From a virus (taxonomy: Duplodnaviria > Caudoviricetes): 55,764 bases of DNA. The notes beneath the pieces were generated by a model. The model had not been told where the DNA came from. It was given only the letters and a program-made list of their open reading frames with translations, and did no database searches. A program made the translations under genes and the position numbers. Position 1 is the stretch's first letter, and the number at the start of each line of letters is the position of its first letter. The DNA lies in the IMG/VR virus record IMGVR_UViG_3300006927_000008, positions 1 through 55,764 of that record, one strand, 5' to 3'. This document shows, in pieces, positions 6,643-49,588 of the stretch.

Positions 6643-6927
6643 TTATGCCTCCACTGTGTCGAAAGCGGTGAGGTAGCCATCCAGGGCCACCGTGAAAGGA
6701 CCATCGCGATCCGGACAATGGTCGAGGATCGCGTCGAACATGTCATAGGCACCCCAGAGGAAATCATCAGGTGTCAGTGGCAGAGCGCCGCCGGCGGCGA
6801 TGGTAAGGCCGGATTGAAAACCACCATGCCAGCTCTGGACGAGCTTTTTGGAGGTGGGACAATCGACTGCCTTTGGAGCGGCGGAGAGCATGGCCATGAT
6901 TCGATCTTTCGTGAGTGTTTTAACCAA
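6643..6927 (-). CDS. hypothetical protein
   Basis: TAAGGA RBS directly after the promoter at 6942-6970. Confidence 0.55.
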   Translation of the reverse strand: MVKTLTKDRIMAMLSAAPKAVDCPTSKKLVQSWHGGFQSGLTIAAGGALPLTPDDFLWGAYDMFDAILDHCPDRDGPFTVALDGYLTAFDTVEA

Positions 6928-6941
6928 TTCCTTATACTATA

Positions 6942-6970
6942 AATATAGGCAAATATGGGCTCAACGTAAA
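6942..6970 (-). promoter_or_regulatory. sigma70-like phage promoter TTTACG-N17-TATATT
   Basis: Same architecture recurs at 12741, 14162, 14816, 19140, 19633 and 47117. Confidence 0.7.
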
Positions 6971-7203
6971 CGCTTTTTCAGGGTATTTTTACCGCTCTAA
7001 GCCGTTGGGAAACAACCACTTGCCATCCCTCTCGACAGCTCATTCAATCAATACGCCCCAATCAGTCATCTGCTGGAGCATCCGTTTGAGAGGTTGACCG
7101 AACCACCGCATTGCTCCAGGTGGAGCACGCTTGATATTGTACGGTGGTTCGTCCTCACATTCCACGCCCATGCAGAATCGTTTGTTATTCACCCATACCC
7201 ACA

Positions 7204-9416: not shown

Positions 9417-9495
9417 TGGTGGGCACAGCAGGACTCGAACCTGCGAATCTCCTCCTTGTAAAAGAGGCTCCATAGCCGCTAGGAATTATGCGCCC
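9417..9495 (-). tRNA. tRNA-Val(TAC)
   Basis: Cloverleaf, loop TT-TAC-AA, TTCGAGT T-loop, CCA. Confidence 0.85.
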
Positions 9496-9508
9496 GAATT
9501 AAGAATTC

Positions 9509-9703
9509 TCATACTATCGTTGGGAAGGGCATTCCCACCTTTGGACATAGATCATTATATGCTTCATACAATCTATTTAACTCTTCCCTGATCAACATCA
9601 TTTCTGATTCAGTGAGCTGATAACCAAAGGACTTGTTTTTCGATTCATCATATGATCGAAACAATCTCTGTAGCTCTTCCACATTAGTCGATTTGTCTAC
9701 CAT
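9509..9703 (-). CDS. small hypothetical protein between tRNAs
   Basis: GAAAGGTT RBS immediately after the upstream tRNA CCA. Confidence 0.6.
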   Translation of the reverse strand: MVDKSTNVEELQRLFRSYDESKNKSFGYQLTESEMMLIREELNRLYEAYNDLCPKVGMPFPTIV

Positions 9704-9719
9704 TGAGAACCTTTCATTA

Positions 9720-9795
9720 TGGTGGCCCTGAAGGGAGTCGAACCCTTACTGAACACGTTTTGAGTGTGCTGCCTCTTCCATTGGGCTACAGGGCC
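9720..9795 (-). tRNA. tRNA-Leu(CAA), short variable loop
   Basis: Loop CT-CAA-AA, CCA. Confidence 0.85.
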
Positions 9796-9821
9796 ATGTA
9801 ATAACTATTCTGTTAGTAATA

Positions 9822-9898
9822 TGGTACACGCGATGGGAGTCGAACCCACATTAGCCTGACTGAGAATCAGGGGTCCTAGACCATTAGACGACGCGTGC
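9822..9898 (-). tRNA. tRNA-Glu(CTC)
   Basis: CCTGA-TTCTCAG-TCAGG, CCA. Confidence 0.9.
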
Positions 9899-9904
9899 AT
9901 ATTA

Positions 9905-9981
9905 TGGTGGGCCCTCTGGGACTTGAACCCAGGACCAATCGATTATGAGTCGAACGCTCTAACCAGCTGAGCTAAAGGCCC
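9905..9981 (-). tRNA. tRNA-Ile2(CAT), lysidine type
   Basis: GGGCCTTTAGCTCAG...GACTCATAATCG body typical of bacterial Ile2; CCA. Confidence 0.8.
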
Positions 9982-9993
9982 AGAATAATGATC

Positions 9994-10091
9994 GCTCTGA
10001 CCAGGTCGCTCGACGTTCGATATAGGAAGCCCTCCGGCACGTGCAGCCAAGCCTCCTTCAGTTCCCCTATTTGTCGCCCTCATTGCAGAGC
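9994..10091 (-). ncRNA. candidate rod-like structured RNA
   Basis: Nested helices GCTCTG/CAGAGC, CGAC/GTCG, ATAGG/CCTAT, GGC/GCC filling an inter-tRNA spacer. Confidence 0.4.
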
Positions 10092-10095
10092 AATA

Positions 10096-10172
10096 TGGCG
10101 GCCAATGAGGGATTCGAACCCCCAACCTACGGTTTCGAAGACCGTGGCTCTAGTCCATTGAGCTAATTGGCC
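10096..10172 (-). tRNA. tRNA-Arg(TCG)
   Basis: ACGGT-CTTCGAA-ACCGT, CCA. Confidence 0.9.
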
Positions 10173-10175
10173 AAG

Positions 10176-10253
10176 TGGTGGGGCAGGTGGGATTTGAACC
10201 CACTATCACTCACTTATAAGACGAGCTCCTATACCAGAATTGGAATCTGCCCT
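10176..10253 (-). tRNA. tRNA-Ile(TAT)
   Basis: CTCGT-CTTATAA-GTGAG, CCA. Confidence 0.75.
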
Positions 10254-10263
10254 ACATGTTCTA

Positions 10264-10339
10264 TGGTGGGGATGACGGGAGTCGAACCCGTAACACACAG
10301 ATTTTAAGTCTGCTGCCTCTTCCATTGGGCTACACCCCC
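10264..10339 (-). tRNA. tRNA-Leu(TAA), short variable loop
   Basis: GCAGA-CTTAAAA-TCTGT, CCA. Confidence 0.85.
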
Positions 10340-10340
10340 A

Positions 10341-10724
10341 TTATACTCGTGTCACCTTCTCTGTCTTATATATAGCACCAATGGTATCGAATTTGACAGA
10401 ACCTTGATATCTAATCAAAACAAGTACGTAATGTGAATCGATGCTGTGCCTTTTGAGCATATCGGCAAGCCACGGAGAAGTTTCAACCACCTTGTATGTC
10501 AAGCGATAATTACTAGACTCAGCCATTATAAATTCTTCACCAGGCTTCATATCCATAGCAGTAAGCGACTCTGGTTCTTGCTGTTCATATGAAAGTTCTG
10601 CTCCACATACGATACAAAAATTGTTTTTGCAGCCTTCGCAATAAGTCCTGCCACAACAAGAAACTTCTCTATACTTTATGGAACTTCCGTGTCTGTGTAA
10701 TGTACCAAGACCTTCATATATCAT
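10341..10724 (-). CDS. hypothetical protein with Cys-rich N-terminus
   Basis: 127 aa; AAAAGGTT RBS after tRNA. Confidence 0.6.
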   Translation of the reverse strand: MIYEGLGTLHRHGSSIKYREVSCCGRTYCEGCKNNFCIVCGAELSYEQQEPESLTAMDMKPGEEFIMAESSNYRLTYKVVETSPWLADMLKRHSIDSHYVLVLIRYQGSVKFDTIGAIYKTEKVTRV

Positions 10725-10743
10725 GACATAACCTTTTATGAAA

Positions 10744-10820
10744 TGGTAGGGGATGCTGGATTCGAACCAGCGACCACCGGTTTAGAAGACCGGTATTCTA
10801 GTCCACTGAATTAATCCCCC
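10744..10820 (-). tRNA. tRNA-Arg(TCT)
   Basis: CCGGT-CTTCTAA-ACCGG, CCA. Confidence 0.9.
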
Positions 10821-10997
10821 AATATATTCTTCGTTGTATGCGAGGCTATAATGGACTTCCTTTATTTCCCATCCTTATGTATATCTATAATCCACAACGG
10901 TGTAAAAGTATACCAAAACCTGCTTGAGAACCATTGTTTAAGCCGCTTTACAGAGGCTCTAAGAGCATTGAATCTCTGCTCCACATGAATATATGGA

Positions 10998-11072
10998 TGG
11001 AGCCAGCAGTGGGATTCGAACCCACGATCTCCCGATTACGAAACAGGTGCTTTATCACTAAGCGATGCCGGC
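10998..11072 (-). tRNA. tRNA-Thr(CGT)
   Basis: Loop TT-CGT-AA, GCC/GGC-T-CCA acceptor. Confidence 0.85.
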
Positions 11073-11079
11073 ATTAATA

Positions 11080-11172
11080 TGGAGGACCAGAAGGGAATCG
11101 AACCCTCAATGTGTCGTTAACTGTTGCTAGGTTAAAAGCCTAGTGCTGACAACCACTATCAGCGTCTGGTCC
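11080..11172 (-). tRNA. tRNA-Lys(TTT) with long variable region
   Basis: CTAGG-CTTTTAA-CCTAG, about 19-nt variable region, CCA. Confidence 0.7.
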
Positions 11173-11173
11173 A

Positions 11174-11284
11174 CAGTGATAAAGTCGCCAGCGCTGGTGC
11201 TTGTTATCCAGCTTTCGGCTCGGTGACGTCTGCAGTACGTCCAAGCAAGGCAGATCATAGTTCATCCTGAATCTGAAGTCACTG
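11174..11284 (-). ncRNA. candidate multibranch structured RNA
   Basis: CAGTGA/TCACTG closing helix with CAGAT/ATCTG, TGCTTG/CAAGCA, GACGT/ACGTC and AGC-CGAAA-GCT inside. Confidence 0.45.
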
Positions 11285-11291
11285 GCTATTA

Positions 11292-11363
11292 TGGTTGCAG
11301 GACTGGGTTTCGATCCCAACGTCTCGGGGTTATGATTCCTGAGTGGTCGCCAGACCTCCTGCA
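11292..11363 (-). tRNA. divergent initiator-like tRNA-Met(CAT)
   Basis: TGCAGG...CCTGCAACCA acceptor, CAT loop, tiny D arm, mismatched anticodon stem. Confidence 0.5.
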
Positions 11364-11639
11364 TCAATTTTAGTATACCGAGAGTTCTCTGTTTCCACGT
11401 ACAGGGACCGCGGGTTGCACGTGACACAAGACCATTCCGCTTGCGGGCGGGAGAATGTAAGGGCGGTAATCGCATCTACATAGCTTCGAAACTACGATCA
11501 TCTCGGTAACATCATTTACAAAAACAATGAAACAATAGATCCAATACTGAATGCAACTCCAGCACAAAGTGGGAGATATCAAACACCACAGAAATCATAG
11601 AATCTATCATTCAAACTATCTTGTTCCACTAGAGCCTCC

Positions 11640-11909
11640 TTACGGTTTAAACTTCTTCACGACTGTTGTCACGACCTCAGCTTCGTCAATGATATGAGGA
11701 TATAGATTTGCTGTATCCACAATGTCAAAAAGCTCAGCCATAATCTTCAAGTTCTCTTCATAAGTCCGTGTGGTCCATTGGTCCATAAACCATTTGATCT
11801 CTGCTTCATCACAACCACTCTGCTTCATAGCATTTCTGGCTGTGGCCATCAATACGAAAGCATTTCCATCAGGACCTGAAAGATCGATGATTAACTGAGG
11901 CTTATTCAT
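11640..11909 (-). CDS. phage hypothetical protein (GPDGNAF motif)
   Basis: GAAAGGTT RBS; IDLSGPDGNAF motif I recognise from phage proteins. Confidence 0.7.
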   Translation of the reverse strand: MNKPQLIIDLSGPDGNAFVLMATARNAMKQSGCDEAEIKWFMDQWTTRTYEENLKIMAELFDIVDTANLYPHIIDEAEVVTTVVKKFKP

Positions 11910-11927
11910 TGTAACCTTTCTTTGTTA

Positions 11928-12107
11928 TGGCGCAGTGGGGAGGAATCGAACCTATATCATTTCGCTATTACCTGTCGGCAATCCGCCATCGCAGGGGTCA
12001 TATGTATTTCTCTACTGACGGAAAGTAGATTCACATACGAACTGATATAAAATGATAGCCGACCTTCTCATAGATAATGAGGCGCTCTACCACTAAACTA
12101 CCACCGC
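11928..12107 (-). tRNA. tRNA-Asp-like (anticodon ATC) interrupted by a 105-nt structured insert in the T-stem
   Basis: Removing 11954-12058 restores GCGGTGG...CTCA-TTATCTA-TGAG...GGAGG-TTCGATT-CCTCC-CCACTGC-G-CCA. Confidence 0.7.
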
Positions 12108-12115
12108 ACAAAATA

Positions 12116-12193
12116 TGGTACACGTGAGGGGACTCGAACCCCCATCGACGAGAGTGAAAATCTCGCATCCTAGTCCAATTAGACGACACGTGC
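12116..12193 (-). tRNA. tRNA-Glu(TTC)
   Basis: CGAGA-TTTTCAC-TCTCG, CCA. Confidence 0.9.
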
Positions 12194-12200
12194 ATATTAA

Positions 12201-12306
12201 CTAGCGAGGTTCAAAAGGTATCTCGAGATTTCCTCTATTCCCCCTTACCAACGACTTAATCCTTCAGGGATTCGAACCCTATTTTCCCCCTCACGGCAAC
12301 ATCCCC
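12201..12306 (-). ncRNA. candidate T-arm-containing non-tRNA RNA
   Basis: AGGG-TTCGAAT-CCCT hairpin inside a GTGAGG/CCTCGC helix; no CCA or anticodon arm. Confidence 0.4.
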
Positions 12307-12310
12307 ATTA

Positions 12311-12387
12311 TGGTGGGCGCCAAGGGTAACGATCCCTTTATCTTCCGCGTATCAGACGGAGGCATTTACCATTTATGCTAGACGCCT
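12311..12387 (-). tRNA. tRNA-Ile(GAT)
   Basis: TCCGT-CTGATAC-GCGGA, CCA; atypical T-loop ATCGTTA. Confidence 0.8.
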
Positions 12388-12445
12388 ACAGTACTTTTTC
12401 TTGCCTTGCCAACCCCAACTCTCTGTCTTAGAACCTTTCATATTA

Positions 12446-12519
12446 TGGCGGAACCGAGGGGCCATGATCCCCCACCTACTCCCGTGACAGGGGAGTGCTC
12501 TACATTAAGCTACGATTCC
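12446..12519 (-). tRNA. tRNA-Asp(GTC)
   Basis: CTCCC-CTGTCAC-GGGAG, G73, CCA. Confidence 0.85.
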
Positions 12520-12769
12520 ATTTTCTTTATCAATTTACTGTATCGTCTCTATGTGTCGAGTCGATAGTCAAATCTCTTTTGCAATGTTGGTCATCAGTCT
12601 GCCGAAGAGCTATGGCAGTTCTGCCTCTTTTCAAAGTGTATGGTGTATAGTTACCACCATATTTTGACCAAGTGAATTTGTCTCCTTTATATGGGAGACG
12701 TTTAACTTCTACAGTATCCATGATTATTCTCCTTACAACTAATATAATCAATTTCTGGACAATTGTAAA

Positions 12770-13201
12770 CTACTTTGCATCTTTTGTGCCATAGACGATA
12801 TGACCCATATAGATCTGGATGATGAAGAAGAATCCGGTTACGAACCAGCCGGCAGCGGCCATCAATGTAACAATGCCGATATCATAAGTTATGTCAACCC
12901 AACGTGGAACTGGGCGAGCGCAGGCCATTTTCCGAAACACCTCCAGTATCGCCTCTTTCTTCTTTTTGATATCATCTGTCTCATTAAATCCGGTAGTTTC
13001 TTCTTCTACCAGGTGGGCAATTAACTTCGCAAAACCTATCATACCACCAACGATGATGGATATGAAGATTGTCCACCAAGCATATAGCCAAGCTATATTG
13101 CTAGCCCAACCTATATCATATACTGTCCCTGCGACCATCGAGGCGGCGAATAATGTATTCATAACTACCCACCTGAAAGCTTTACCTTTTTTCTTAGCCA
13201 T
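12770..13201 (-). CDS. hypothetical membrane protein
   Basis: 143 aa, 3-4 hydrophobic segments; GAAAGGTT RBS after tRNA-Ser. Confidence 0.7.
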   Translation of the reverse strand: MAKKKGKAFRWVVMNTLFAASMVAGTVYDIGWASNIAWLYAWWTIFISIIVGGMIGFAKLIAHLVEEETTGFNETDDIKKKKEAILEVFRKMACARPVPRWVDITYDIGIVTLMAAAGWFVTGFFFIIQIYMGHIVYGTKDAK

Positions 13202-13216
13202 TCCAACCTTTCTGTA

Positions 13217-13305
13217 TGGCGGAGAGCCAGGGAATTGAACCCTGTGTGCCTTTTACAACACGACAGTTTAGCAAACTGCTTAGCAGACCAAATGCAATGC
13301 TCTCC
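13217..13305 (-). tRNA. tRNA-Ser(GCT)
   Basis: Loop TT-GCT-AA, long variable arm, G73. Confidence 0.85.
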
Positions 13306-13312
13306 ATTATTA

Positions 13313-13403
13313 TGGCGGAGGCGTAGAGAATCGAACTCTAGACGCAGTGTTTGCTACGCAGCCGGGTTCAAACCGGTGTCCTCGTCCATGCCGGACCACC
13401 TCC
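13313..13403 (-). tRNA. tRNA-Ser(TGA)
   Basis: Loop TT-TGA-AC, long variable arm, G73. Confidence 0.85.
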
Positions 13404-13422
13404 ATTTACAATCTTTCTTAAA

Positions 13423-13497
13423 TGGCTCCTGCCCAGGGAGTCGAACCCCGAACCGGTCGGTTAACAGCCGACTGCTCTGCCATTGAGCTAGACAGGA
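13423..13497 (-). tRNA. tRNA-Asn(GTT)
   Basis: GTCGG-CTGTTAA-CCGAC, TCC/GGA-G-CCA. Confidence 0.9.
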
Positions 13498-13505
13498 TCA
13501 TGTAG

Positions 13506-13582
13506 TGGCTGGCCTCCAAGGATTCGAACCTTGAATCGACGCCTTCAGAGGACGTTGCATTAGCCGGTTATGCTAGAGGCCA
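13506..13582 (-). tRNA. tRNA-Gln(CTG)
   Basis: Loop CT-CTG-AA, U1-A72, CCA. Confidence 0.85.
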
Positions 13583-13588
13583 TCATTC

Positions 13589-13966
13589 TTACAGCAGTGG
13601 TAGATCTCCAATCAACTGCTTGATCAAGTCTGAATCACATGGACCAAGTGATACACCAACCAAAGTATCTACGATAATCTTGTTCGAGTCCGATACGTTC
13701 ATCTGAACCGTATCAGTCCACTTATAACGAGGCACCTTACCGTCAGGATCGCGGCTGATGATATCTTCAAGGACCTCTCTGTTCGGCACCTTATGGACGA
13801 AGATGTATGGATCAGTCAGCCACGGCAAAAATTCATGCCATTCTTTTGGGTCCATAATCTGCTGCCTCATACACTCAGCATGGATATGAGCCACTTGTGC
13901 TGCCATCAACCCTGGAGTAAAACCAAGGTCAGTGCGGATCAGGATACTCTGTCGCAGGTTTGCCAT
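13589..13966 (-). CDS. pth2: peptidyl-tRNA hydrolase, Pth2 type
   Basis: QSILIRTDLG.TPGLMAAQVAH and TLVGVSLGP...IGDLPLL match the Pth2 family pattern. Confidence 0.8.
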   Translation of the reverse strand: MANLRQSILIRTDLGFTPGLMAAQVAHIHAECMRQQIMDPKEWHEFLPWLTDPYIFVHKVPNREVLEDIISRDPDGKVPRYKWTDTVQMNVSDSNKIIVDTLVGVSLGPCDSDLIKQLIGDLPLL

Positions 13967-14131
13967 TTATTCGTCCACCTCCGTGTAACCCTTCTTGTGC
14001 TTCTGCTTTCGAGAATAATGCTGACGATCTCCCTTGGAAGCGTGTGGCTGAGTTGCTCTTCCACCCTGGCCTCTGCGAATCTGTCGTCTGAGTTCCTCGT
14101 AATCGATACCAACTGCGTCCATGGTCTTCAT
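13967..14131 (-). CDS. 54-aa basic peptide with ArfA-like YxRKxKHK motif
   Basis: Translated by hand: MKTMDAVGIDYEELRRQIRRGQGGRATQPHASKGDRQHYSRKQKHKKGYTEVDE; own promoter (14162-14190) and CAGGA RBS. Confidence 0.5.
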   Translation of the reverse strand: MKTMDAVGIDYEELRRQIRRGQGGRATQPHASKGDRQHYSRKQKHKKGYTEVDE

Positions 14132-14195
14132 GGTTTTTCCTGTGTAAAAGTGTGTAGTCTAAATATAACCATTTGTACTGCGATTGTAAAGGCTT

Positions 14196-14597
14196 TTATA
14201 TATAATCTTCAACCCCTTTTTCATCACCATCATCTTCGAGGCAGTTCCAGGGAGTGGAACCATACCACTGTGGGTGCTCTTTCAGATAATCACCATCCAC
14301 TTCGACAACATCGACCTCGCCTGGGCCCGTGAGCCCGAATTCCTCGTGCAAATATTCATGTCGAGCGAAGTGTTCGGCTTGGGCTGGATTTTCTGCAACC
14401 ACTGCAGCCTTGACGATTGTTGATACCATGAAACACTTCAACGACGGTTCGGCTGGTGTGAGCGCCTCATCTTTGGCTGGAATCGATGCGATCAGCTTAT
14501 CCCTCTCTTCAGGGTCGAGTGACGCGATCCACTCCAATGCAACCTGCTCAAATGCCTTCACGTAATTTGCATCCTCCGTATCAGTAGCCATTTTCAA
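14196..14597 (-). CDS. acidic hypothetical protein
   Basis: 133 aa in a minus-strand operon. Confidence 0.6.
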   Translation of the reverse strand: MKMATDTEDANYVKAFEQVALEWIASLDPEERDKLIASIPAKDEALTPAEPSLKCFMVSTIVKAAVVAENPAQAEHFARHEYLHEEFGLTGPGEVDVVEVDGDYLKEHPQWYGSTPWNCLEDDGDEKGVEDYI

Positions 14598-14599
14598 TC

Positions 14600-14782
14600 C
14601 TATGATTCGGGTCCGAGGAATAATTCATCCCAGCAGGCGTCGGAGCACATCCCCGAAATCCACTGTTCGACATCCATGCTCGTTCCGTAGATCGATGCGA
14701 GCTCATGGGTCTCAAAAGTTGGAACGTATTCACGCCCGCAGTGAGGACACTTAAGAACCGCATTCAATTTCGTTTCAACCAT
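14600..14782 (-). CDS. small zinc-finger-like protein
   Basis: CPHC...CSDAC; GGAGG RBS; promoter at 14816-14844. Confidence 0.6.
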   Translation of the reverse strand: MVETKLNAVLKCPHCGREYVPTFETHELASIYGTSMDVEQWISGMCSDACWDELFLGPES

Positions 14783-14897
14783 TGTGCCTCCATATCCATT
14801 AAACCTTACATACTAAATATAGGCAATTTTGAGGGTATCGTAAACGTCTTTTCGGAACTAATTAACCTGTCGTAAATCCAATGTTTATGATGACTTA

Positions 14898-14971
14898 TGG
14901 AAGCCCCCGAGGGATTTGAACCCTCACCCAGCACGTTCAAAGCGTGCCTATGCTACTTACACCAAGGGGCT
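14898..14971 (-). tRNA. tRNA-Gln(TTG)
   Basis: GCACG-CTTTGAA-CGTGC, CCA. Confidence 0.85.
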
Positions 14972-14974
14972 ATA

Positions 14975-15055
14975 TGGTCGGGTGCTCAGGAATCGAACCT
15001 GGCTAGCGCAAGCGCTGGAGGGTTACAGCCTCCAATGTATCCCAGTACTCACCCG
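14975..15055 (-). tRNA. tRNA-Tyr(GTA) with C1:G72
   Basis: GGAGG-CTGTAAC-CCTCC, long variable arm, CGGGTG/CACCCG-A-CCA. Confidence 0.75.
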
Positions 15056-15058
15056 TTA

Positions 15059-15136
15059 TGGTGCTCGATGTAGGACTCGAACCTACGAAATCACCTGTAT
15101 GTCAAACAGGTCCCTTAGCCACTAGGGTAATCGAGC
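15059..15136 (-). tRNA. tRNA-Val(GAC)
   Basis: CCTGT-TTGACAT-ACAGG, CCA. Confidence 0.9.
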
Positions 15137-15139
15137 ATA

Positions 15140-15224
15140 TGGTGCTCATGACTGGATTCGAACCAGCGATCCCGAAGGAACAACGCCCTCAACGTTGCGC
15201 GTATACCAGTTTCGCCACATGAGC
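15140..15224 (-). tRNA. tRNA-Leu(GAG)
   Basis: CAACG-TTGAGGG-CGTTG, long variable arm, CCA. Confidence 0.9.
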
Positions 15225-15228
15225 ATAT

Positions 15229-15450
15229 TCATGATATTTCAGGTGTATGCATCTTTTCATCATACGGATATATTTCAAAGAAGTACGAAAATCCTTTGTA
15301 CTCAATTGCATAATCCAATATGGCCTTACATACGACCTTATTATAGAACTCTTCTATAGTCATCGAAGGAGTGAGAGTACCGCCTAACTTTCTGGCGAGA
15401 TCTATCTCATCACGTATCTTCGACTTCCTTGTCATTGAGAGTCTATACAT
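15229..15450 (-). CDS. small hypothetical protein
   Basis: AAAGGT RBS after tRNA-Thr. Confidence 0.55.
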   Translation of the reverse strand: MYRLSMTRKSKIRDEIDLARKLGGTLTPSMTIEEFYNKVVCKAILDYAIEYKGFSYFFEIYPYDEKMHTPEIS

Positions 15451-15472
15451 TTATTACCTTTATTCAAATAAA

Positions 15473-15549
15473 TGGAGCCGTAGGTGGGAATCGAACCCAC
15501 GATCTCTTCCTTACCAAGGAAGCGCCCTCACCTTGAAGACCTCTACGGC
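15473..15549 (-). tRNA. tRNA-Thr(GGT)
   Basis: CTTCC-TTGGTAA-GGAAG, CCA. Confidence 0.85.
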
Positions 15550-15665
15550 AATTTGTAGATATCGTTCTGTCGAATATAGTCATAAACACCAGCAGAAAGT
15601 AGATGTCTAATGCTGAGACCTTTTCAATTCTATCTCGTACCTCTGATGAAGAAACCTCCATTATG

Positions 15666-15738
15666 TGGTAGCCCTGGAGGGAGTTGAACCCCCTAGCTCT
15701 GGTTCGTAGCCGAAGCGCCTCAATCCCTAGGCAGGGCT
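15666..15738 (-). tRNA. tRNA-Arg(ACG)
   Basis: Loop CT-ACG-AA, CCA; weak D arm. Confidence 0.75.
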
Positions 15739-15836
15739 ATAGTCAATATCGAACTCAAACAGTTTTTAATGCAATTGGCCTGAAAAATTAATTCAGTTGA
15801 TACTCAGAGCCACGTAGAGGCTTGCATTGTTCTGAG

Positions 15837-15914
15837 TGGTTGACCGACGGGACTCGAACCCGCATACTCTCGATTCACAGTCGAGAACCTTAATTCCTTT
15901 AGGCTACGGTCAAC
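15837..15914 (-). tRNA. tRNA-His(GTG)
   Basis: CTCGA-CTGTGAA-TCGAG. Confidence 0.85.
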
Positions 15915-15942
15915 ACGGGTGAGGGAATTGAATCCCTCAATA

Positions 15943-16015
15943 TGGCACGGGTAGTAGGTATCGATCCCACTGCGATCGGGTTTGGAATCCAATCCGCTGG
16001 CCACAGCTTACCCGT
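15943..16015 (-). tRNA. tRNA-Trp(CCA)
   Basis: Loop TT-CCA-AA, G73, CCA; short D arm. Confidence 0.7.
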
Positions 16016-16190
16016 ATATTTCTATTTGATTCTCTGCTCTTTTCTTGGTACCGCTACTTCATCTCTCTTAAAGAAGAAAACATATCCACCGTAAAGTAAG
16101 ACAGCGGCAATACCAAGATACAACATCACATCACTTCCACCGCCACTTACTCCAACCGTTACTCCTTCAGTAACTCCATTCATAACCATA

Positions 16191-16267
16191 TGGTGCCCAT
16201 GGTAGGATTCGAACCTACAACACACAGCTTCTAAGGCTGCTGTCTCTTCCAATTGGACTACATGGGC
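16191..16267 (-). tRNA. tRNA-Leu(TAG), short variable loop
   Basis: GCAGC-CTTAGAA-GCTGT, CCA. Confidence 0.85.
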
Positions 16268-16272
16268 ATATT

Positions 16273-16459
16273 AAAGCGGAGCTCTATTCCATTAGGCCAT
16301 CACACCCGAAACGGACAGAATTGAAACACTGAAAACGTGATAAGCGAATCAGACGTTCAATTCCCCTCCTATCATTTGAAGCATCCGGATGGTGGCCGGA
16401 ATCTCTTGGCGAGCGAAAGTCGCCAAGGCTCTGTCTACCGATATTTGAGCTATGCTTCA
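16273..16459 (-). ncRNA. tRNA-like cloverleaf (16377-16459) with a 3' extension able to refold it
   Basis: TGAAGCA/TGCTTCA, GCTC/GAGC, CTTGGCGA-CTTTCGC-TCGCCAAG, TCCGG-CCACCAT-CCGGA; no CCA. Confidence 0.55.
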
Positions 16460-16462
16460 TAA

Positions 16463-16554
16463 TGGCTGGGGAAGTAGGACTCGAACCTACGTACCGTTTT
16501 CAACCGGTCGACCGCATTAACAGTGCGGGGCATTGCCAACTCTGCCACCTCGGT
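16463..16554 (-). tRNA. chimeric long-variable-arm tRNA with Asn(GTT) anticodon and non-pairing acceptor stem
   Basis: CCGCA-CTGTTAA-TGCGG; last 28 nt identical to the tRNA at 16701; 5' ACCGAGG does not pair with TTCCCCA. Confidence 0.55.
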
Positions 16555-16684
16555 ATATTTCTGTGTCTTCTTCAAGATCAATTTCATGACCACATTTGCA
16601 TCTGAAGTATCTGCCAGTGTCATCAACTCTTCGGTGACGATGGATCCAGTCTTCGTGGAAATTGCAGCCTTGATCTTCTTTCAT
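16517..16684 (-). CDS. 55-aa His/Cys-rich peptide
   Basis: GAAAGGTT RBS; MKEDQGCNFHEDWIHRHRRVDDTGRYFRCKCGHEIDL...; stop falls in the next tRNA anticodon loop. Confidence 0.45.
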   Translation of the reverse strand: MKEDQGCNFHEDWIHRHRRVDDTGRYFRCKCGHEIDLEEDTEIYRGGRVGNAPHC

Positions 16685-16700
16685 GATAACCTTTCAATAA

Positions 16701-16778
16701 TGGCTGGGGAAGTAGGACTCGAACCTACCTCATTTCCGGTTAACAGCCGGACGCTATCGCCTGGACAGCTCTTCCCCA
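16701..16778 (-). tRNA. tRNA-Asn(GTT)
   Basis: TCCGG-CTGTTAA-CCGGA, G73, CCA. Confidence 0.85.
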
Positions 16779-16786
16779 ATATATTA

Positions 16787-16863
16787 TGGTCAGGGTGGAA
16801 GGATTCGCACCCTCGGCTTCCTCGCCCCAAACGAGGCACTCTACTGGACTGAGTTACACCCTG
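16787..16863 (-). tRNA. tRNA-Pro(TGG)
   Basis: CCTCG-TTTGGGG-CGAGG, C1-G72, CCA. Confidence 0.9.
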
Positions 16864-17240
16864 ACGTATTCTTGTATAATACTCTCAACTAGAGAGCGGT
16901 GCTTCGAATGATAGTACTGATGATGGTTTGGACAAATTGGAACCAAATTCTTTGGGTCGTGATTTGTTTTATCGCCATCTGCATGATGAACCTCCACTGC
17001 AAGTTCTTCGCCGCATACTATACATTTCTTTTCATGGTGTGCAAAACATATCTTCCTATAGTTCTGGCCTTTCCAACAGCCATTATTTTCTCCACTACGA
17101 AAATATTTATTGGAACAGGCATAACCACATGTCTGCTTCTCTTTAGGACAACCTTTTTTTGCTTCAAATTCATCCCCACAAACCGGACAATTCTTCTTTA
17201 TCCACGGATACTGTGGGTTCTTCGTATATTGATTGGCCAT
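16854..17240 (-). CDS. HNH homing endonuclease
   Basis: CPVC, CGYAC, CIVCG, EVHHADGDKTNHDPKNLVPICPNHH. Confidence 0.85.
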   Translation of the reverse strand: MANQYTKNPQYPWIKKNCPVCGDEFEAKKGCPKEKQTCGYACSNKYFRSGENNGCWKGQNYRKICFAHHEKKCIVCGEELAVEVHHADGDKTNHDPKNLVPICPNHHQYYHSKHRSLVESIIQEYVRV

Positions 17241-17310
17241 TGCATTCCCCTTTCGCAATAAATATCATTGCCTAAGGTTTGGAATACATCCAAATCAATA
17301 GCACATATTA

Positions 17311-17385
17311 TGGAGGCCCCGTTGGGAGTCGAACCCAATAGGAAATCGCTTTGCAGGCGACCCGCTTGCCGTTGGCTTCGGAGCC
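17311..17385 (-). tRNA. tRNA-Cys(GCA)
   Basis: Loop CT-GCA-AA, U73, CCA. Confidence 0.85.
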
Positions 17386-17417
17386 GAATATTTAGGTTAC
17401 TTTATCATCCGTCCTTT

Positions 17418-17582
17418 GGCCACCACAGCCGCAGGGTTGAGAATCAATTTCGCCTGAGGTTGGACGTCATTCACTGGTTAGGATCCTAACTACTCAGCCT
17501 CAAATCGTGTGGATCAAGGGACTTAAACCCTTGTAGAGGAGATACATCCTCCATTGCATCGTAGCAATTAACTACGGTGGCC
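17418..17582 (-). ncRNA. candidate multibranch structured RNA with T-loop-like hairpin
   Basis: GGCCACC/GGTGGCC closure; CAAGGG-TTTAAGT-CCCTTG; GAGGA/TCCTC; TGAGGCTG/CAACCTCA; GTTAGGATCCTAAC palindrome. Confidence 0.5.
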
Positions 17583-17603
17583 GCTATCATGGCATCCCAA
17601 TTA

Positions 17604-17676
17604 TGGTGGAGAGTGGGAGAATCGAACTCCCATGGCTTCGGTGCAAGCGAGGCGTGTGACCCATCAGCAACTCCCC
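17604..17676 (-). tRNA. tRNA-Ala(TGC)
   Basis: Loop CT-TGC-AC, G3:U70, CCA. Confidence 0.85.
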
Positions 17677-17748
17677 AAATTTCGAGAGATAAGATACCGA
17701 AATATCTAATAGGCGTCCCTATGACAAAATTATCTCCCTCGTCCTGTA

Positions 17749-17842
17749 TGCTCTCTGTCAGGGTGGCAGGATTCGAACCTGCGTATTCTCGATTCCAGGT
17801 CGAGACGATAGCCGGACTTTCGTTACACCCTGACAGAGAGCA
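17749..17842 (-). tRNA. tRNA-Pro(TGG)-like with acceptor stem extended to 17 bp and no CCA
   Basis: CTCGA-CCTGGAA-TCGAG; TGCTCTCTGT-CAGGGTG/CACCCTG-ACAGAGAGCA. Confidence 0.6.
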
Positions 17843-17861
17843 CAACATATCCGTCGTAAAA

Positions 17862-17924
17862 TGGCCAGCAGATAAACATCGAAGAATAGGGTCATGAGCC
17901 CCGAGGGTCTTTCCTCGTCCGCTA
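17862..17924 (-). pseudogene. degenerate initiator-like tRNA-Met(CAT) lacking the T-stem
   Basis: TAGCGGA/TCTGCTG-G-CCA, GGG-CTCATGA-CCC, unpaired TTCGAT. Confidence 0.45.
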
Positions 17925-17927
17925 GTA

Positions 17928-18003
17928 TGGAGCCGTCTCTCAGATTCGAACTGAGTATCTCTACTTTACAAGAGTAGCGCAAATCCTAATTTGCTTAGAC
18001 GGC
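17928..18003 (-). tRNA. tRNA-Thr(TGT)
   Basis: CTACT-CTTGTAA-AGTAG, CCA. Confidence 0.85.
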
Positions 18004-18076
18004 AAGTTTGCCAGGTGTCCTATACTTAGACGATAGACTGCGAGCTAGGCATTTCTCCTAACATTTCCTGGACCAA

Positions 18077-18151
18077 TGGAAGCGGGCGAGGTTGCTGCCA
18101 CCTCTAGCTACCCGGATTATGAGTCCGGGAGGATCACTGGATCTACCCGCG
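18077..18151 (-). tRNA. tRNA-Met(CAT), initiator-like, atypical T-loop
   Basis: CGCGGG start with 1:72 mismatch; CCGGA-CTCATAA-TCCGG; CCA. Confidence 0.65.
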
Positions 18152-18191
18152 GATCGTACTGTGACATTACATCCGCCACGTCTTAAGTGCC

Positions 18192-18319
18192 TGAAGATGT
18201 GGAGTCGAACCACTTGCGAACCTGCTCGGCCAGCGTCCTTTGACGGAGCCTCTGAGGAATCGAACCTCTTTCATCCCGTGTCCGCGGAGACATTAGGGAA
18301 ACCACCAACGGCGTCTTCA
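18192..18319 (-). ncRNA. tRNA-like RNA with two T-arms
   Basis: TGAAGA/TCTTCA closure; GAGG-TTCGATT-CCTC and GTGG-TTCGACT-CCAC. Confidence 0.55.
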
Positions 18320-18324
18320 AAATA

Positions 18325-18400
18325 TGGAGGGGTATACGGGAATCGAACCCGTCTATCTTGGTTGGAAGCCAAGCATCTTATACCGATGGATCAATACCCC
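18325..18400 (-). tRNA. tRNA-Gly(TCC)
   Basis: CTTGG-CTTCCAA-CCAAG, U73, CCA. Confidence 0.9.
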
Positions 18401-18407
18401 AAAACTA

Positions 18408-18470
18408 TGATGGAGATGGATGGGAATCGAACCCGCGTCTTCCGGTACTCTGCCACTGAGTTACCATCCC
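18408..18470 (-). ncRNA. tRNA-like RNA without anticodon arm
   Basis: GGGATGG-TA-ACTC-AGTGGCA-GAGT-ACCGGAAGAC-GCGGG-TTCGATT-CCCAT-CCATCTC-CATCA. Confidence 0.6.
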
Positions 18471-18476
18471 ACTTTA

Positions 18477-18552
18477 TGGTGGAGGCCCCGGGAATTGAAC
18501 CCAGTTGTCTGGTACTTCAAGCCAGCGCATTGACCACAATTGCTTGACCTCC
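18477..18552 (-). tRNA. tRNA-Phe(GAA)
   Basis: Loop TT-GAA-GT, A73, CCA. Confidence 0.75.
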
Positions 18553-19096: not shown

Positions 19097-19309
19097 TTCC
19101 TCTATCCTCTGTCAGTGTCTACCAAAACCTTATACTATAAATATAGGCAATTTCTGGGATATCCTAAACGCTTTTTCGAAACTAATTGAGGACCCTCTCT
19201 AAGTCCAATAAAAGCCCTCTAGAACCCTGCTTTTGAGCGCTCTAGAGCTGATTCTAGAGCTCCGAATCAGGCTCCCCGATGTTTCACCCATGGCTGACAT
19301 CAGGGCAAT

Positions 19310-19622: not shown

Positions 19623-19632
19623 ATACGAAGTA

Positions 19633-19661
19633 AATATAGGCCAAGAATGGCTATTTGTAAA
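19633..19661 (-). promoter_or_regulatory. sigma70-like promoter at the head of the tRNA array
   Basis: TTTACA-N17-TATATT, about 10 nt upstream of the first tRNA-like RNA. Confidence 0.75.
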
Positions 19662-19680
19662 CCACTACGTGAAAAAAGTT

Positions 19681-45736: not shown

Positions 45737-46243
45737 TCAATGGAACCACCTTTTCACTCTTCGTGGAAGATCGAAATTGTCAAGATGAGATTGGTCAATA
45801 CCAACCACATTAACAATGAATTCAAGTAGTGCTTTCAATTCCTTTTTCGTTGCATCGCGAGGGATAAGAAGATCACGCTCTTTTCCATCATATAAACTAT
45901 GGTTATGTAGACCGAGACCATGAAGACCGTCTACAGCATCTGCCAAATCATCTTCAGCTTCATCATCGTATTCGTCATCATATTCATCCTCTTCTTCCAT
46001 CATCTGCAACATTCTTTCGGTGAGTTCATCTACTTCTTCATCTTCATAAAGAGCACTGTCATCATCATCATACTCACCGTTCTCTTCGTCGTAGTCGACT
46101 TCTTCATCAACATTTACTGTAGGACGCAATACTCCAGGTGCTACCTCTTCTTCCTCTTCTGGAGGTGAGCAATAGATTTCATCTGATTCGTCTTCATGAG
46201 AGAGTAATGCATCAACTTCTTTTTGTGATAGGATGTCACCCAC
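45737..46243 (-). CDS. acidic protein with FliM-like N-terminal peptide
   Basis: AAGGAG RBS with GTG start; MGDILSQKEVDALL followed by a D/E-rich tract. Confidence 0.7.
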   Translation of the reverse strand: MGDILSQKEVDALLSHEDESDEIYCSPPEEEEEVAPGVLRPTVNVDEEVDYDEENGEYDDDDSALYEDEEVDELTERMLQMMEEEDEYDDEYDDEAEDDLADAVDGLHGLGLHNHSLYDGKERDLLIPRDATKKELKALLEFIVNVVGIDQSHLDNFDLPRRVKRWFH

Positions 46244-46262
46244 GTTTATTCTCCTTATAGTA

Positions 46263-46551
46263 ATTGTTCCGATAAATAGCCAGTTGTGTAGAGTGATCAG
46301 AGAAAAAGATCAACACAAGTTCTGGATTTTTCCAGTGGATTCTCCACTCAATACTTTAGCCTTGCGCACTTGATACTTGAACCGGCATTATTTATCGACA
46401 TTGCCGTATGTCTTAAACTTGAGCGCTTAAGGCTTGAGACTTTATAGGTTGCCCTAACGGGCTGCATTATATAGTCTATTATATAGAGTTCCATTCTATC
46501 GCTGATGGAGCGCGTTTCCCTATTTCCTCCTGTTTACATCTACGAAACAAT
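46263..46551 (-). ncRNA. candidate ~290-nt structured RNA with tandem AAG repeats
   Basis: Terminal helix ATTGTTTCG-TAGAT/ATTTA-T-CGGAACAAT; nine AAG units spaced 6-8 nt in two clusters; no ORF in the track. Confidence 0.6.
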
Positions 46552-46558
46552 CGATATG

Positions 46559-47516: not shown

Positions 47517-47712
47517 CCATCAATTCTTGCAAATCATCTTCAAGTTCTTGCTCAGCGATAGCTTCGGCATCATAATTCCTGAGCTTCATTCTTGTCTTTT
47601 GCCTTTTCACGTGATTCTCTTTCTTAAGGTGCTTCCTTGATCTTTTTGCAGGGTCGATTAAGTTCTGATCTCTCTTACGTCTTGTTCGAGACATGATATC
47701 TCTCCTTACCAA
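47497..47712 (-). CDS. small basic hypothetical protein
   Basis: Probable start MSRTRRKR after AAGGAG. Confidence 0.55.
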   Translation of the reverse strand: MVRRDIMSRTRRKRDQNLIDPAKRSRKHLKKENHVKRQKTRMKLRNYDAEAIAEQELEDDLQELMDDYDDE

Positions 47713-48347
47713 ACTTCTTCGTTATTGCCAGGGCCCACCACTTCATCTACGAAACCAAGCTTTACAGCTTCTTTCGCGCCGATGTACCACTCTCTGTCAG
47801 TACGAATCTTTCTTTTGATAGTCGCTTTCTTGACAGTCCCATTAGAGCGAGACGCAAACCAATCGATCAAATCGTTTTCATAGCCATCCAAAAGCTTCAC
47901 ATATGACTTAATCGTCGATATATCCATTTCATCGCCAGCTCCTGCCTTGGCATCATGGAGCATAAATACCGTACTGGGAAAGCAACGTCTTACATGACCA
48001 GCTTCAAACAAAACAAAGGCCGATGAAAAACAATACGCTGTTCCTATGGTGACTACTGGTGTAGGACAGGAGATGATAAAATCGCGGATGAACAACGTCT
48101 CATATAAGTTCCCACCACCGGAATTGATAATAACCGTAATAGGAGTCTCTGCATCAGCAGCCATCATCAGGTTCATTCTCATATAGATATTCTCTATGAT
48201 GTTCTGATTGATGAATCCGTTTACCAAGATTTTTCTATGAAGGAGTGACTCTTCATACACAGACAAGTCCTTAATTCCACTGATATCATCCCCTATTTGA
48301 TCCACACTGCCCTCTTCTATCTCCTGAAACTTAGGTGCGGTTGCCAT
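47706..48347 (-). CDS. clpP: ClpP-like serine protease (S14)
   Basis: R.I...G.I, INSGGG, SSA, FMLH, A.EAVKLGFVD; probable start MATAPK after AGGAG. Confidence 0.85.
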   Translation of the reverse strand: MATAPKFQEIEEGSVDQIGDDISGIKDLSVYEESLLHRKILVNGFINQNIIENIYMRMNLMMAADAETPITVIINSGGGNLYETLFIRDFIISCPTPVVTIGTAYCFSSAFVLFEAGHVRRCFPSTVFMLHDAKAGAGDEMDISTIKSYVKLLDGYENDLIDWFASRSNGTVKKATIKRKIRTDREWYIGAKEAVKLGFVDEVVGPGNNEEVW

Positions 48348-48355
48348 GTATTCTC

Positions 48356-49588
48356 CTATACAAATTCGTGATGCTGCGTATTGCTTTTTGCTATTTCTGC
48401 AGCTTCGAGTAACTGTGATTCCCATGTGTCTACAGCACCACTGCCATGGACGTTTTCTATCTGTACCAATTCTCTATACTGCTCAAATAACTTCCATACT
48501 GCCTTGTTACTTTCGTGTGGTTTACATAGCTCTGTACAATTGCTGAATTTTTCTACTTCATCAATTTGATCCATCACCTTTCTACGAGCCTTAAGATCAT
48601 TCCATATTTCACTGAATGGCCTATCGTGTAAGGAGCCATACGAATACTCTTTATAGCCTCTATGATTAGGACAGACATAGACATGACCATCTGCTCCTAC
48701 ACAAGGTGATATCTGTGATCCAAGACAACTTTTGTATCTTCTGCCGAATAGCTCAGGGTCGTTCTTAAGGTCAGAGAACTTATATCCAGGGAGCTGGAAT
48801 TTATCGCCAAGGATTTCCTTTGCTTCAGCTACCAATGGTTCGACGTCTTTCTCCCAGAAATCGATCTCCCTTTGGATACCATCTTCTCTTTCCCTATTCA
48901 CGATTTCAGGTTTGTACTGACAGTAATCGACTCCTGTATGTACAAAGCTCTTTGCAAAAGAGACTATACCCTTGTATGTATCCGGAGTAATAACAAATCC
49001 TACTCCTATGGTCATATTGGATTTATGCATATCTCTTATAGCAACCAGATTCTGCAAGCTATACATCATGTGATCCCAGTCCTGACCAGTGGGTGGTTTC
49101 CTTACTCTATTATAGATCAAATAATTGCCAGCATCGACAGAGTATCGTACCCATGTCATATACTTGACTAGAGTTTCATAAGCATCCCTAACTGGAACCA
49201 GAGTACCATTGGTAAACATACCCATCTTGATATCTGTGTTCTTTCCCACCCATTCGATAACCTCGGTAAGATGAGGGTTAACGAATGGTTCACCTCCTCC
49301 GGTCCAGTTGATCGCCCTTACTCCCATATCAGCCATATCCTCAACAGCTGCGAACAACATCTCTCTCGACATTATAGACCGATTGAACGTAGCTGTTCCT
49401 TTGGCTTCTGCTTGATGGATATAATTGCTGATACAGAAAGAACAACCATGGTTGCAAGCATTACTTGGATCGAACTCAACTAACACAGGAGCTGTATTAC
49501 CCGTCTTGAAAAGTTCAATCACTCTATCAGCATTGACAAGAACCTTTTGCTCTGGGTTAAAGATTTTTGATTCGAAGTACTGTGTCAT
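48356..49588 (-). CDS. radical SAM protein with SPASM-like domain
   Basis: CNHGCSFC, TGGGEP, TNG, ADGHVYVC, C-terminal cysteines. Confidence 0.9.
   Translation of the reverse strand: MTQYFESKIFNPEQKVLVNADRVIELFKTGNTAPVLVEFDPSNACNHGCSFCISNYIHQAEAKGTATFNRSIMSREMLFAAVEDMADMGVRAINWTGGGEPFVNPHLTEVIEWVGKNTDIKMGMFTNGTLVPVRDAYETLVKYMTWVRYSVDAGNYLIYNRVRKPPTGQDWDHMMYSLQNLVAIRDMHKSNMTIGVGFVITPDTYKGIVSFAKSFVHTGVDYCQYKPEIVNREREDGIQREIDFWEKDVEPLVAEAKEILGDKFQLPGYKFSDLKNDPELFGRRYKSCLGSQISPCVGADGHVYVCPNHRGYKEYSYGSLHDRPFSEIWNDLKARRKVMDQIDEVEKFSNCTELCKPHESNKAVWKLFEQYRELVQIENVHGSGAVDTWESQLLEAAEIAKSNTQHHEFV

Follow-up and report, generated by a model that had tools for sequence, protein, structure and literature searches.

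A 168-aa acidic orphan protein, encoded on the minus strand at positions 45737..46243 (stop codon included) of the window, that is, of the whole 55,764-nt stretch of DNA analysed here (IMG/VR virus record IMGVR_UViG_3300006927_000008), opens with the peptide that FliM, a protein of the flagellar switch, uses to dock the phosphorylated response regulator CheY (CheY-P). We consider it moderately probable that the protein is a soluble decoy of this FliM N-terminal segment (FliM_N), which would bind CheY-P or a CheY-like receiver. The same peptide is found at the start of several other phage proteins, and, as far as sequence comparison goes, the use of a known docking motif as a free-standing head on unrelated phage proteins is what is new here.

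The GTG at 46243-46241 is the first ATG, GTG or TTG codon in a 190-codon open frame, and a Shine-Dalgarno (SD) sequence, AAGGAG, can be read directly on the same strand at 46251..46256, with a 7-nt spacer to this start. The product begins with MGDILSQKEVDALLSH. In this translation M-GDILSQKEVDALL opens the protein, and residues 2-14 (46202..46240, minus), directly after the initiator, make up a FliM_N-type (LSQxEIDALL, or 'EIDAL') putative CheY-P docking peptide. Residues 17-110 (45914..46195, minus) form a polyacidic low-complexity linker of variable length, as judged from composition, the predicted model and natural variants, with 45 Asp or Glu and 2 Lys or Arg among 94 residues (48% Asp/Glu). 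The remaining 58 residues (111-168; 45740..45913, minus) are basic, with 10 Lys or Arg, 9 Asp or Glu and a segment pI of 8.4, and the model predicts three short helices in them; the pI of the whole protein is 4.05. A preliminary description of this region had reported a FliM-like N-terminus followed by a highly acidic stretch, and the ORF, its translation and the acidic residue count agree with it. The initiator is GTG and not ATG, and in place of the small C-terminal domain of that description we find a basic, helical segment of about 58 aa predicted with low confidence.

The structure prediction itself has to be read with caution, as the AlphaFold2 single-sequence model of the protein is a low-confidence one, with a mean pLDDT of 59.9. 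In this model residues 7-14, inside the FliM_N-type peptide, form a helix, and residues 15-70 have no secondary structure. Further helices are predicted at residues 71-83 and 95-109 of the acidic tract, across which the pLDDT is 54-64, and at residues 133-147, 151-156 and 161-167 of the C-terminal segment. The motif begins at residue 2 and is followed by a stretch that is predicted to be flexible, which is the position expected of a FliM_N-class motif. A complex prediction for Swiss-Prot CHEY_ECOLI with residues 1-40, run without alignments and without controls, gave a score of 0.02 against a mark of 0.34, which counts neither for nor against binding.

Stretches of 315 and 310 nt that contain no noteworthy ORFs border the gene. 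According to the ORF map, the 315 nt upstream (46244..46558, minus) are non-coding and could be a promoter region of the gene's own; five promoter-like sites were found around the ORF against a mean of 5.0 in shuffled sequences, and, as such matches are no commoner than in shuffles, we do not claim a promoter there. Terminator-like sites around the ORF numbered four against a shuffle mean of 1.4, none of them placed to define a transcription unit, and an Rfam search around the ORF returned no match. A low-complexity orphan with non-coding flanks of about 310 nt on both sides might be an accidental open frame in a spacer between transcription units rather than a functional gene. This is extremely improbable in our view, since the frame has a strong SD sequence at ideal spacing, lies on the strand of all neighbouring genes, carries the FliM_N signature exactly at its start and differs between populations by in-frame indels, and since a near-identical stretch is present in contigs of several marine runs.

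Searches of Pfam, PHROGs, NCBIfam and PADLOC with the window protein gave no match beyond two sub-threshold hits, one to DUF7342 in Pfam, which falls within the acidic tract, and one to the NCBIfam model TIGR01397. Residues 1-31 had no match among PDB sequences, residues 100-168 had no usable match in the ESM Atlas, and megablast and tblastn searches of a phage collection gave no homologue other than, at most, P0001. In searches of 5.8 billion clustered proteins and of 1.84 billion representatives, P0001 was the one relative found. It is 98% identical to the window protein, with two extra Asp residues in the poly-Asp tract; its gene was called from the same start, upstream of the motif, and the peptide motif is kept. 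A search of the 5.8 billion proteins with residues 1-40 alone (E <= 10) yielded three candidates and nothing beyond P0001, and viral contigs searched for related loci with the window protein or the neighbouring single-stranded DNA-binding protein (SSB) likewise gave no homologue besides P0001. P0002, a low-complexity match in the search of the 1.84 billion representatives, was dismissed as a relative. The near-identical stretches come from runs labelled marine metagenome, nine of which contain at least half of the sampled words; no RNA run is listed among those that contain the stretch. Four marine runs were compared at the locus: three of the four carry an in-frame insertion of 3 nt in the poly-Asp tract (46058), and run X6 has a T>C change at 46205 that turns TTA into TTG at Leu13, a synonymous change inside the motif. 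Another population variant, A>G at 46248, lies in the spacer between the SD sequence and the start and leaves the SD sequence itself intact. These variants, few as they are, fit a frame that is translated, a peptide that is protected and an acidic spacer that tolerates changes in length.

What does the N-terminal peptide resemble? The N-terminus of E. coli K-12 FliM is MGDSILSQAEIDALLNGDSEV, and passages of bioRxiv 10.1101/781468 give the same 16 residues, in agreement with the sequence quoted in the preliminary description. Passages of PMC6700473 describe FliM_N as a disordered segment that contains LSQXEIDALL, binds CheY-P and becomes structured upon binding, which bears out the docking role that the description assigned to LSQxEIDxLL, and a salt bridge between FliM_N D12 and CheY K119 is described in part of bioRxiv 10.1101/781468. 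Passages of PMC6946799 describe sporadic occurrences of the EIDAL motif on FliN and FliY as well, as the preliminary description had stated. Residues 5-14 of the window protein read LSQKEVDALL and have the form of a docking peptide of the LSQxEIDALL type. In a BLASTP comparison with E. coli FliM only residues 1-19 of the phage protein align, to FliM residues 1-20, with 13/20 positions identical. The sole family match to the peptide N-terminus is TIGR01397 (fliM_switch), where residues 3-34 fall weakly (E 0.058) on profile positions 1-33; the score of 12.5 bits is far under the cut-off of 219.6, as expected for a match that consists of a peptide. The Pfam FliM model begins at residues 37-52 of real FliMs, past the peptide, and therefore cannot detect it.

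How specific this signature is to FliM was assessed in a scan with back-translated GDILSQxE[IVM]DALL over one genome per species (185,579 species), which gave at least 120 loci. All 120 matches listed have a start codon just ahead of the motif, at a distance of one codon in 39 and of two codons in 81; the 101 complete ORFs among them are 323-382 aa long (median 330), and PF02154 and PF01052 were both present in 6/6 FliM-sized ORFs sampled across phyla. Among these 120 listed FliMs, position x is S, N, E, D, A, H, T or G, the I/V position is V in 3/120 and S is replaced by T in 4/120. The phage peptide differs from them at x and at the I/V position alone, where it has K and V, respectively, and K at the variable position is absent from all 120. 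The taxa listed are mostly Bacillota, together with Fibrobacterota, Nitrospirota, Latescibacterota and a few Gammaproteobacteria, which does not amount to an identification of the host, and the identity of the motif codons to the 120 listed fliM genes, which peaks at 38/42 nt, is not decisive for the host either. If residues are drawn at the amino-acid frequencies of the window itself, the signature G-D-I-L-S-Q-x-E-[IV]-D-A-L-L has a probability of 1.2e-14 of falling on a fixed position, and chance is excluded as the source of the FliM-like N-terminus.

Judged by its domains, the window protein is not a FliM. No match to the FliM middle domain PF02154 was found in it at E <= 0.1, nor anywhere else in the window, and the C-terminal SPOA domain (FliMN_C, PF01052) had no match in the protein. 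The Pfam CheZ family gave no match at E <= 0.1 either, and the peptide of the window protein is N-terminal.

The window has a CheckV completeness estimate of 26% and carries a replication and nucleotide-metabolism module with Pol III alpha, DnaB, a 5'-3' exonuclease, ribonucleotide reductase, dCMP deaminase, RtcB and DNA ligase. A gp32-like SSB and RecA/UvsX are encoded two and three genes downstream of the ORF. Upstream of it lie genes for a 171-aa protein, a HAD-like phosphatase, a ClpP-type protease and a radical SAM/SPASM enzyme, and further neighbours code for a nudix hydrolase, a cytidylyltransferase and a glycosyltransferase. The ClpP-type protease gene, 1.5 kb upstream, matches head-maturation protease PHROGs and, taken with the acidic and partly helical composition of the window protein, could speak for a role in virion assembly, for instance as a scaffold of acidic helices, a prohead-core or an internal protein, with the N-terminus as an assembly or targeting signal. 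The neighbours are metabolic and replicative, no portal, capsid or terminase gene was found near the ORF and the protein matches no scaffold family, all of which makes a role in assembly very improbable. Apart from this, we noted that the protease gene overlaps the end of the radical SAM/SPASM gene (47706-49588, minus), an unusual pair for a region concerned with replication and metabolism. The window also has 32 tRNA genes, including tRNA-Ile(UAU) and three copies of tRNA-Asn, which are clustered at 9417-18552 (minus). An intergenic repeat of about 63 nt is present at 6927-6989, 14801-14863 and 19125-19187 (and 19631-19662), with copies that are 65-81% identical; it contains TAAATATAGGCAA…GTAAACG and could be a phage promoter or a regulatory site.

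No close cultured relative of the window virus was found. The best cultured relative is the Microcystis phage Mel-JY01, which has the same SSB-RecA-helicase order and identities of 41.6% for RecA, 35.9% for DnaB and 30.4% for SSB; no ORF with the N-terminus of the window protein was found upstream of its SSB gene. Microcystis is non-flagellated. The host of the window virus may be non-flagellated as well, which counts against a decoy of a flagellar protein.

To see where else the peptide occurs among viruses, 2.9 million viral contigs were scanned for LSQxE[IV]DALL in four back-translated forms, with Ser encoded by TCN or by AGY and with either Ile or Val. The four patterns gave 13, 14, 8 and 1 loci, 36 in total, and a reversed-peptide control with a degeneracy equal to that of the first form gave none. 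As the scan was confined to exact matches to four codon patterns and left out the window's own record, this census is a lower bound. By our own grouping, which relies on the printed flanking sequence and, for N-terminal groups, also on BLASTP, the 36 loci fall into 18 groups. The motif lies within 13 residues of the start codon in 13/36 loci and 6/18 groups, an N-terminal excess among groups with a binomial tail of 1.7e-4 if 5% are expected at random. It is internal or C-terminal in the other 23/36 loci (12 groups) and one of the N-terminal cases is a terminase, so that the ten-residue core alone is not diagnostic.

The N-terminal groups comprise a 152-aa protein starting with MRDILSQDEIDALL (L003/L008), a 168-aa protein starting with MASILSQSEIDALL (L006), a protein of 82-92 aa starting with MTLSQEEVDALL on a complete 210-kb record with terminal repeats (L028), a 130-aa protein starting with MSDGSLSQDEIDALL (L032), a group of Campylobacter phage proteins (L029, L030, L031, L033, L034, L035 and L036) and a terminase large subunit (L012, 4943-6529, minus). 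Beyond the motif, their bodies are mutually unrelated by BLASTP except within the Campylobacter group, and no Pfam family was found in the viral proteins with an N-terminal motif. No Response_reg (receiver) domain was found in the window or in five other records that encode motif proteins. A terminase is present in the records of L006 (G002) and L028 (G003); the phrog_2 terminase was not found in the records of L003 (G001) and L032 (G004), which are classed as proviruses and whose viral nature is putative. The L003 and L006 proteins and loci had no match among cultured phages in tblastn or blastn searches. Several individual loci deserve a comment. In the L012 terminase (phrog_2, 90 bits), MSSLSQAEIDALL is an N-terminal extension that precedes the family match, and it could be there by chance or serve as a functional tag. 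The terminase match in G002 (C1:78696-80351) contains one in-frame TAG, possibly due to an intron, a recoded stop or a sequencing error. The frames at L034 and L036, 39 and 49 aa long, have a Fletchervirus-type head, …ILSQEEIDALL[E/K]CGSRPTNLG, and look like truncated extra or broken copies. On a 236-kb viral record, a 121-codon frame (L016:2881-3246, plus strand) carries LSQDEVDALL ten residues from its C-terminus, a placement that recalls the way in which CheZ tethers CheY.

The Campylobacter group is the best populated of these. Its L029 protein is 100% identical to gp071 of phage CP220 (YP_009169205.1), which belongs to phrog_8774, a family annotated without a function. A tblastn search with the L029 protein found it in 29 phage records, all from Campylobacter phages and all annotated as hypothetical; carriers of the family include Firehammervirus, Fletchervirus and the 35-kb temperate phage DA10, and its proteins include CP21_042 and homologues in NCTC12673, CP81 and CP8. 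Campylobacter is a flagellated host. As the window protein has no divergent homologues, conservation of the motif in phage homologues, which the preliminary description had proposed to check, was assessed in this parallel family, and there it holds. Five members (L159:4001-4366, which is CP220 gp071, L030:2535-2900, L031:3150-3536, L157:3001-3375 and L158:3001-3384) were considered. The start MAQILSQEEID[A/E]LL is nearly invariant although members are 33-40% identical overall. In an alignment of five members with the L032 protein, in which identities to CP220 are 95, 40, 33, 37 and 20%, 9 of the 15 invariant columns fall within residues 1-14, and from member to member the codons of the motif differ synonymously. 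From this pattern we conclude that the peptide is kept under selection in phrog_8774. The window protein is not itself a member: it has no PHROG match, and when the bodies are compared by BLASTP the result is a 15-residue alignment with E 1.8.

These observations bear on a second explanation, according to which the peptide is leftover or neutral, for example a 5' fragment that the phage captured from a host fliM or an amphipathic helix of a generic, capped kind, and the activity resides in the polyacidic region. That region could then imitate DNA or another polyanion and bind nucleoid proteins, restriction enzymes or the SSB and recombinase of the phage. Such a mimic would suit an orphan protein with 48% Asp/Glu across 94 residues and a pI of 4.05, whose gene lies in a replication module, two genes upstream of those for the gp32-like SSB and RecA/UvsX. 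On the other hand, no DNA-mimic family matches it in Pfam, PHROG, NCBIfam or PADLOC, and an acidic tract whose length varies in the population suits a spacer better than a shaped mimic. Nor would a neutral remnant account for the presence of this peptide at the head of at least five further groups of phage proteins, unrelated to one another, or for the selection on it in phrog_8774. The chance probability of the signature is 1.2e-14. We consider this explanation unlikely, with a small but real share of the probability.

The record that contains L003 holds a further relative of FliM. A 291-aa ORF (L003:4965-5840, plus strand, equivalent to G001:C1:79185-79736) starts with the FliM_N-like MSNVLSQEEVTALL and matches PF02154 with 47.9 bits (cut-off 27) over profile positions 2-186 of 192; no SPOA domain match was found in it. 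The ORF directly follows the small FliM_N-headed ORF L003:4460-4918 and sits in the middle of a 152,642-bp IMG/VR 'provirus' record. By its domain content it may be a truncated FliM encoded by a mobile element, and a FliM predicted to lack the ring-anchoring domain fits the decoy idea.

The proposal that the window protein mimics FliM had been made in the preliminary description. The part that stands is the exact FliM signature, which lies inside the true reading frame and recurs on unrelated phage proteins; its extension to host signalling draws on sequence throughout, and we infer the sequestration of CheY-P from the identity of the motif. Residues 2-14 match the FliM_N signature at the position it has in FliM, after the initiator and before a flexible stretch. 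The phage peptide keeps FliM's Asp and both Leu residues, and every other part of FliM is missing. We hypothesize that, during infection, the peptide would become a short helix lying against the alpha4-beta5-alpha5 face of CheY-P or a CheY-like receiver, where its conserved Asp, D11, which corresponds to D12 of E. coli FliM, would pair with the CheY lysine equivalent to K119. Lacking the FliM middle and SPOA domains, the window protein could not enter the C ring and would therefore compete with motor-bound FliM for CheY-P, as well as with any other partner that binds CheY on this face. The flagellar motor would then keep to its default state of rotation, so that chemosensing would no longer steer swimming. 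The acidic linker is probably a soluble, length-tolerant spacer, and the basic segment at the C-terminus may provide one more contact or bind a different target; the docking of a decoy peptide as such leaves both regions unexplained. As to the benefit for the phage, one might speculate that infected cells are protected from superinfection by flagellum-using phages, whose entry depends on rotation, or, alternatively, that the behaviour of the infected cell is fixed.

A functional peptide could also dock elsewhere, for example on a CheY paralogue, a receiver linked to CheV or CheA, a response regulator of pili, secretion or transcription, or another partner, and thereby rewire a different pathway. 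The nearest cultured relative of the virus infects a non-flagellated cyanobacterium, the motif also heads the L012 terminase large subunit, which is hard to link to chemotaxis, and K8 and V10 are atypical among the 120 FliMs listed, all of which would be easier to understand if the partner were not CheY. Conversely, the 13-residue signature sits on FliM-sized N-termini in 120/120 genome matches listed, and the best-populated phage family that carries the peptide infects the flagellated Campylobacter. CheY-P is also the only partner of the signature documented in the passages of PMC6946799, PMC6700473 and bioRxiv 10.1101/781468 drawn on here. A different partner is accordingly improbable, and docking on CheY-P or a CheY-like receiver remains the reading that we prefer.

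The presence of a FliM_N peptide on unrelated proteins suggests, at the level of sequence, that phages tamper with the control of host swimming. More broadly, and tentatively, we propose that phages of flagellated bacteria have repeatedly grafted this peptide onto unrelated small proteins, with a truncated FliM in one record. During infection, such polyphyletic 'switch decoys' might shut down chemotaxis signalling or divert it; among them, the window protein would be a marine jumbo-phage member, and phrog_8774 the experimentally tractable one. We hold this wider proposal with somewhat less confidence than an even judgement would imply. A full-text literature search, covering main texts, found no phage protein with a FliM_N peptide or aimed at the CheY-FliM interaction, and neither 'FliM' nor 'CheY' was present in a term search of some Campylobacter phage papers. 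Mimicry of short linear motifs is a classic strategy of eukaryotic viruses; to our knowledge it has rarely been documented for phages. If the peptide binds CheY-P, phages would control how infected cells swim, which would bear on flagellotropic infection, superinfection exclusion, the marine dispersal of infected cells and the behaviour of Campylobacter in phage treatment. The hypothesis also offers a first clue to what a conserved gene, annotated as 'hypothetical' in 29 Campylobacter phage records, might do.

The window protein can be set beside several known systems. With Ocr and ArdA, which are polyacidic phage DNA mimics, it shares an extreme negative charge, but it has no family match and its acidic tract is length-variable and predicted to be largely disordered. 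CheZ is an acidic CheY-P phosphatase with a short terminal helix that binds the same face of CheY; its peptide is C-terminal and joined to a catalytic helical hairpin. With FliM itself, the window protein shares the signature and its place, at residues 2-14 after the initiator and followed by a flexible stretch, and it retains the Asp that pairs with CheY K119. It differs from FliM in that it lacks the middle (CheC-like) and SPOA domains, has 168 aa as compared with about 330 aa and is encoded by a phage. The FliY and FliN variants described in passages of PMC6946799 likewise carry the motif, complete or degenerate, on a body other than the middle domain of FliM, but they keep the SPOA domain and are motor subunits, whereas the window protein has neither feature. 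The truncated FliM of G001 has in common with it a FliM_N-like start, a location on a mobile element and the lack of a SPOA domain match, and differs in retaining the FliM middle domain. A further parallel is phrog_8774, whose small phage proteins (121-128 aa) open with the same peptide (MAQILSQEEIDALL) after the initiator; their bodies are unrelated to that of the window protein and have no polyacidic linker, and their hosts are known and flagellated.
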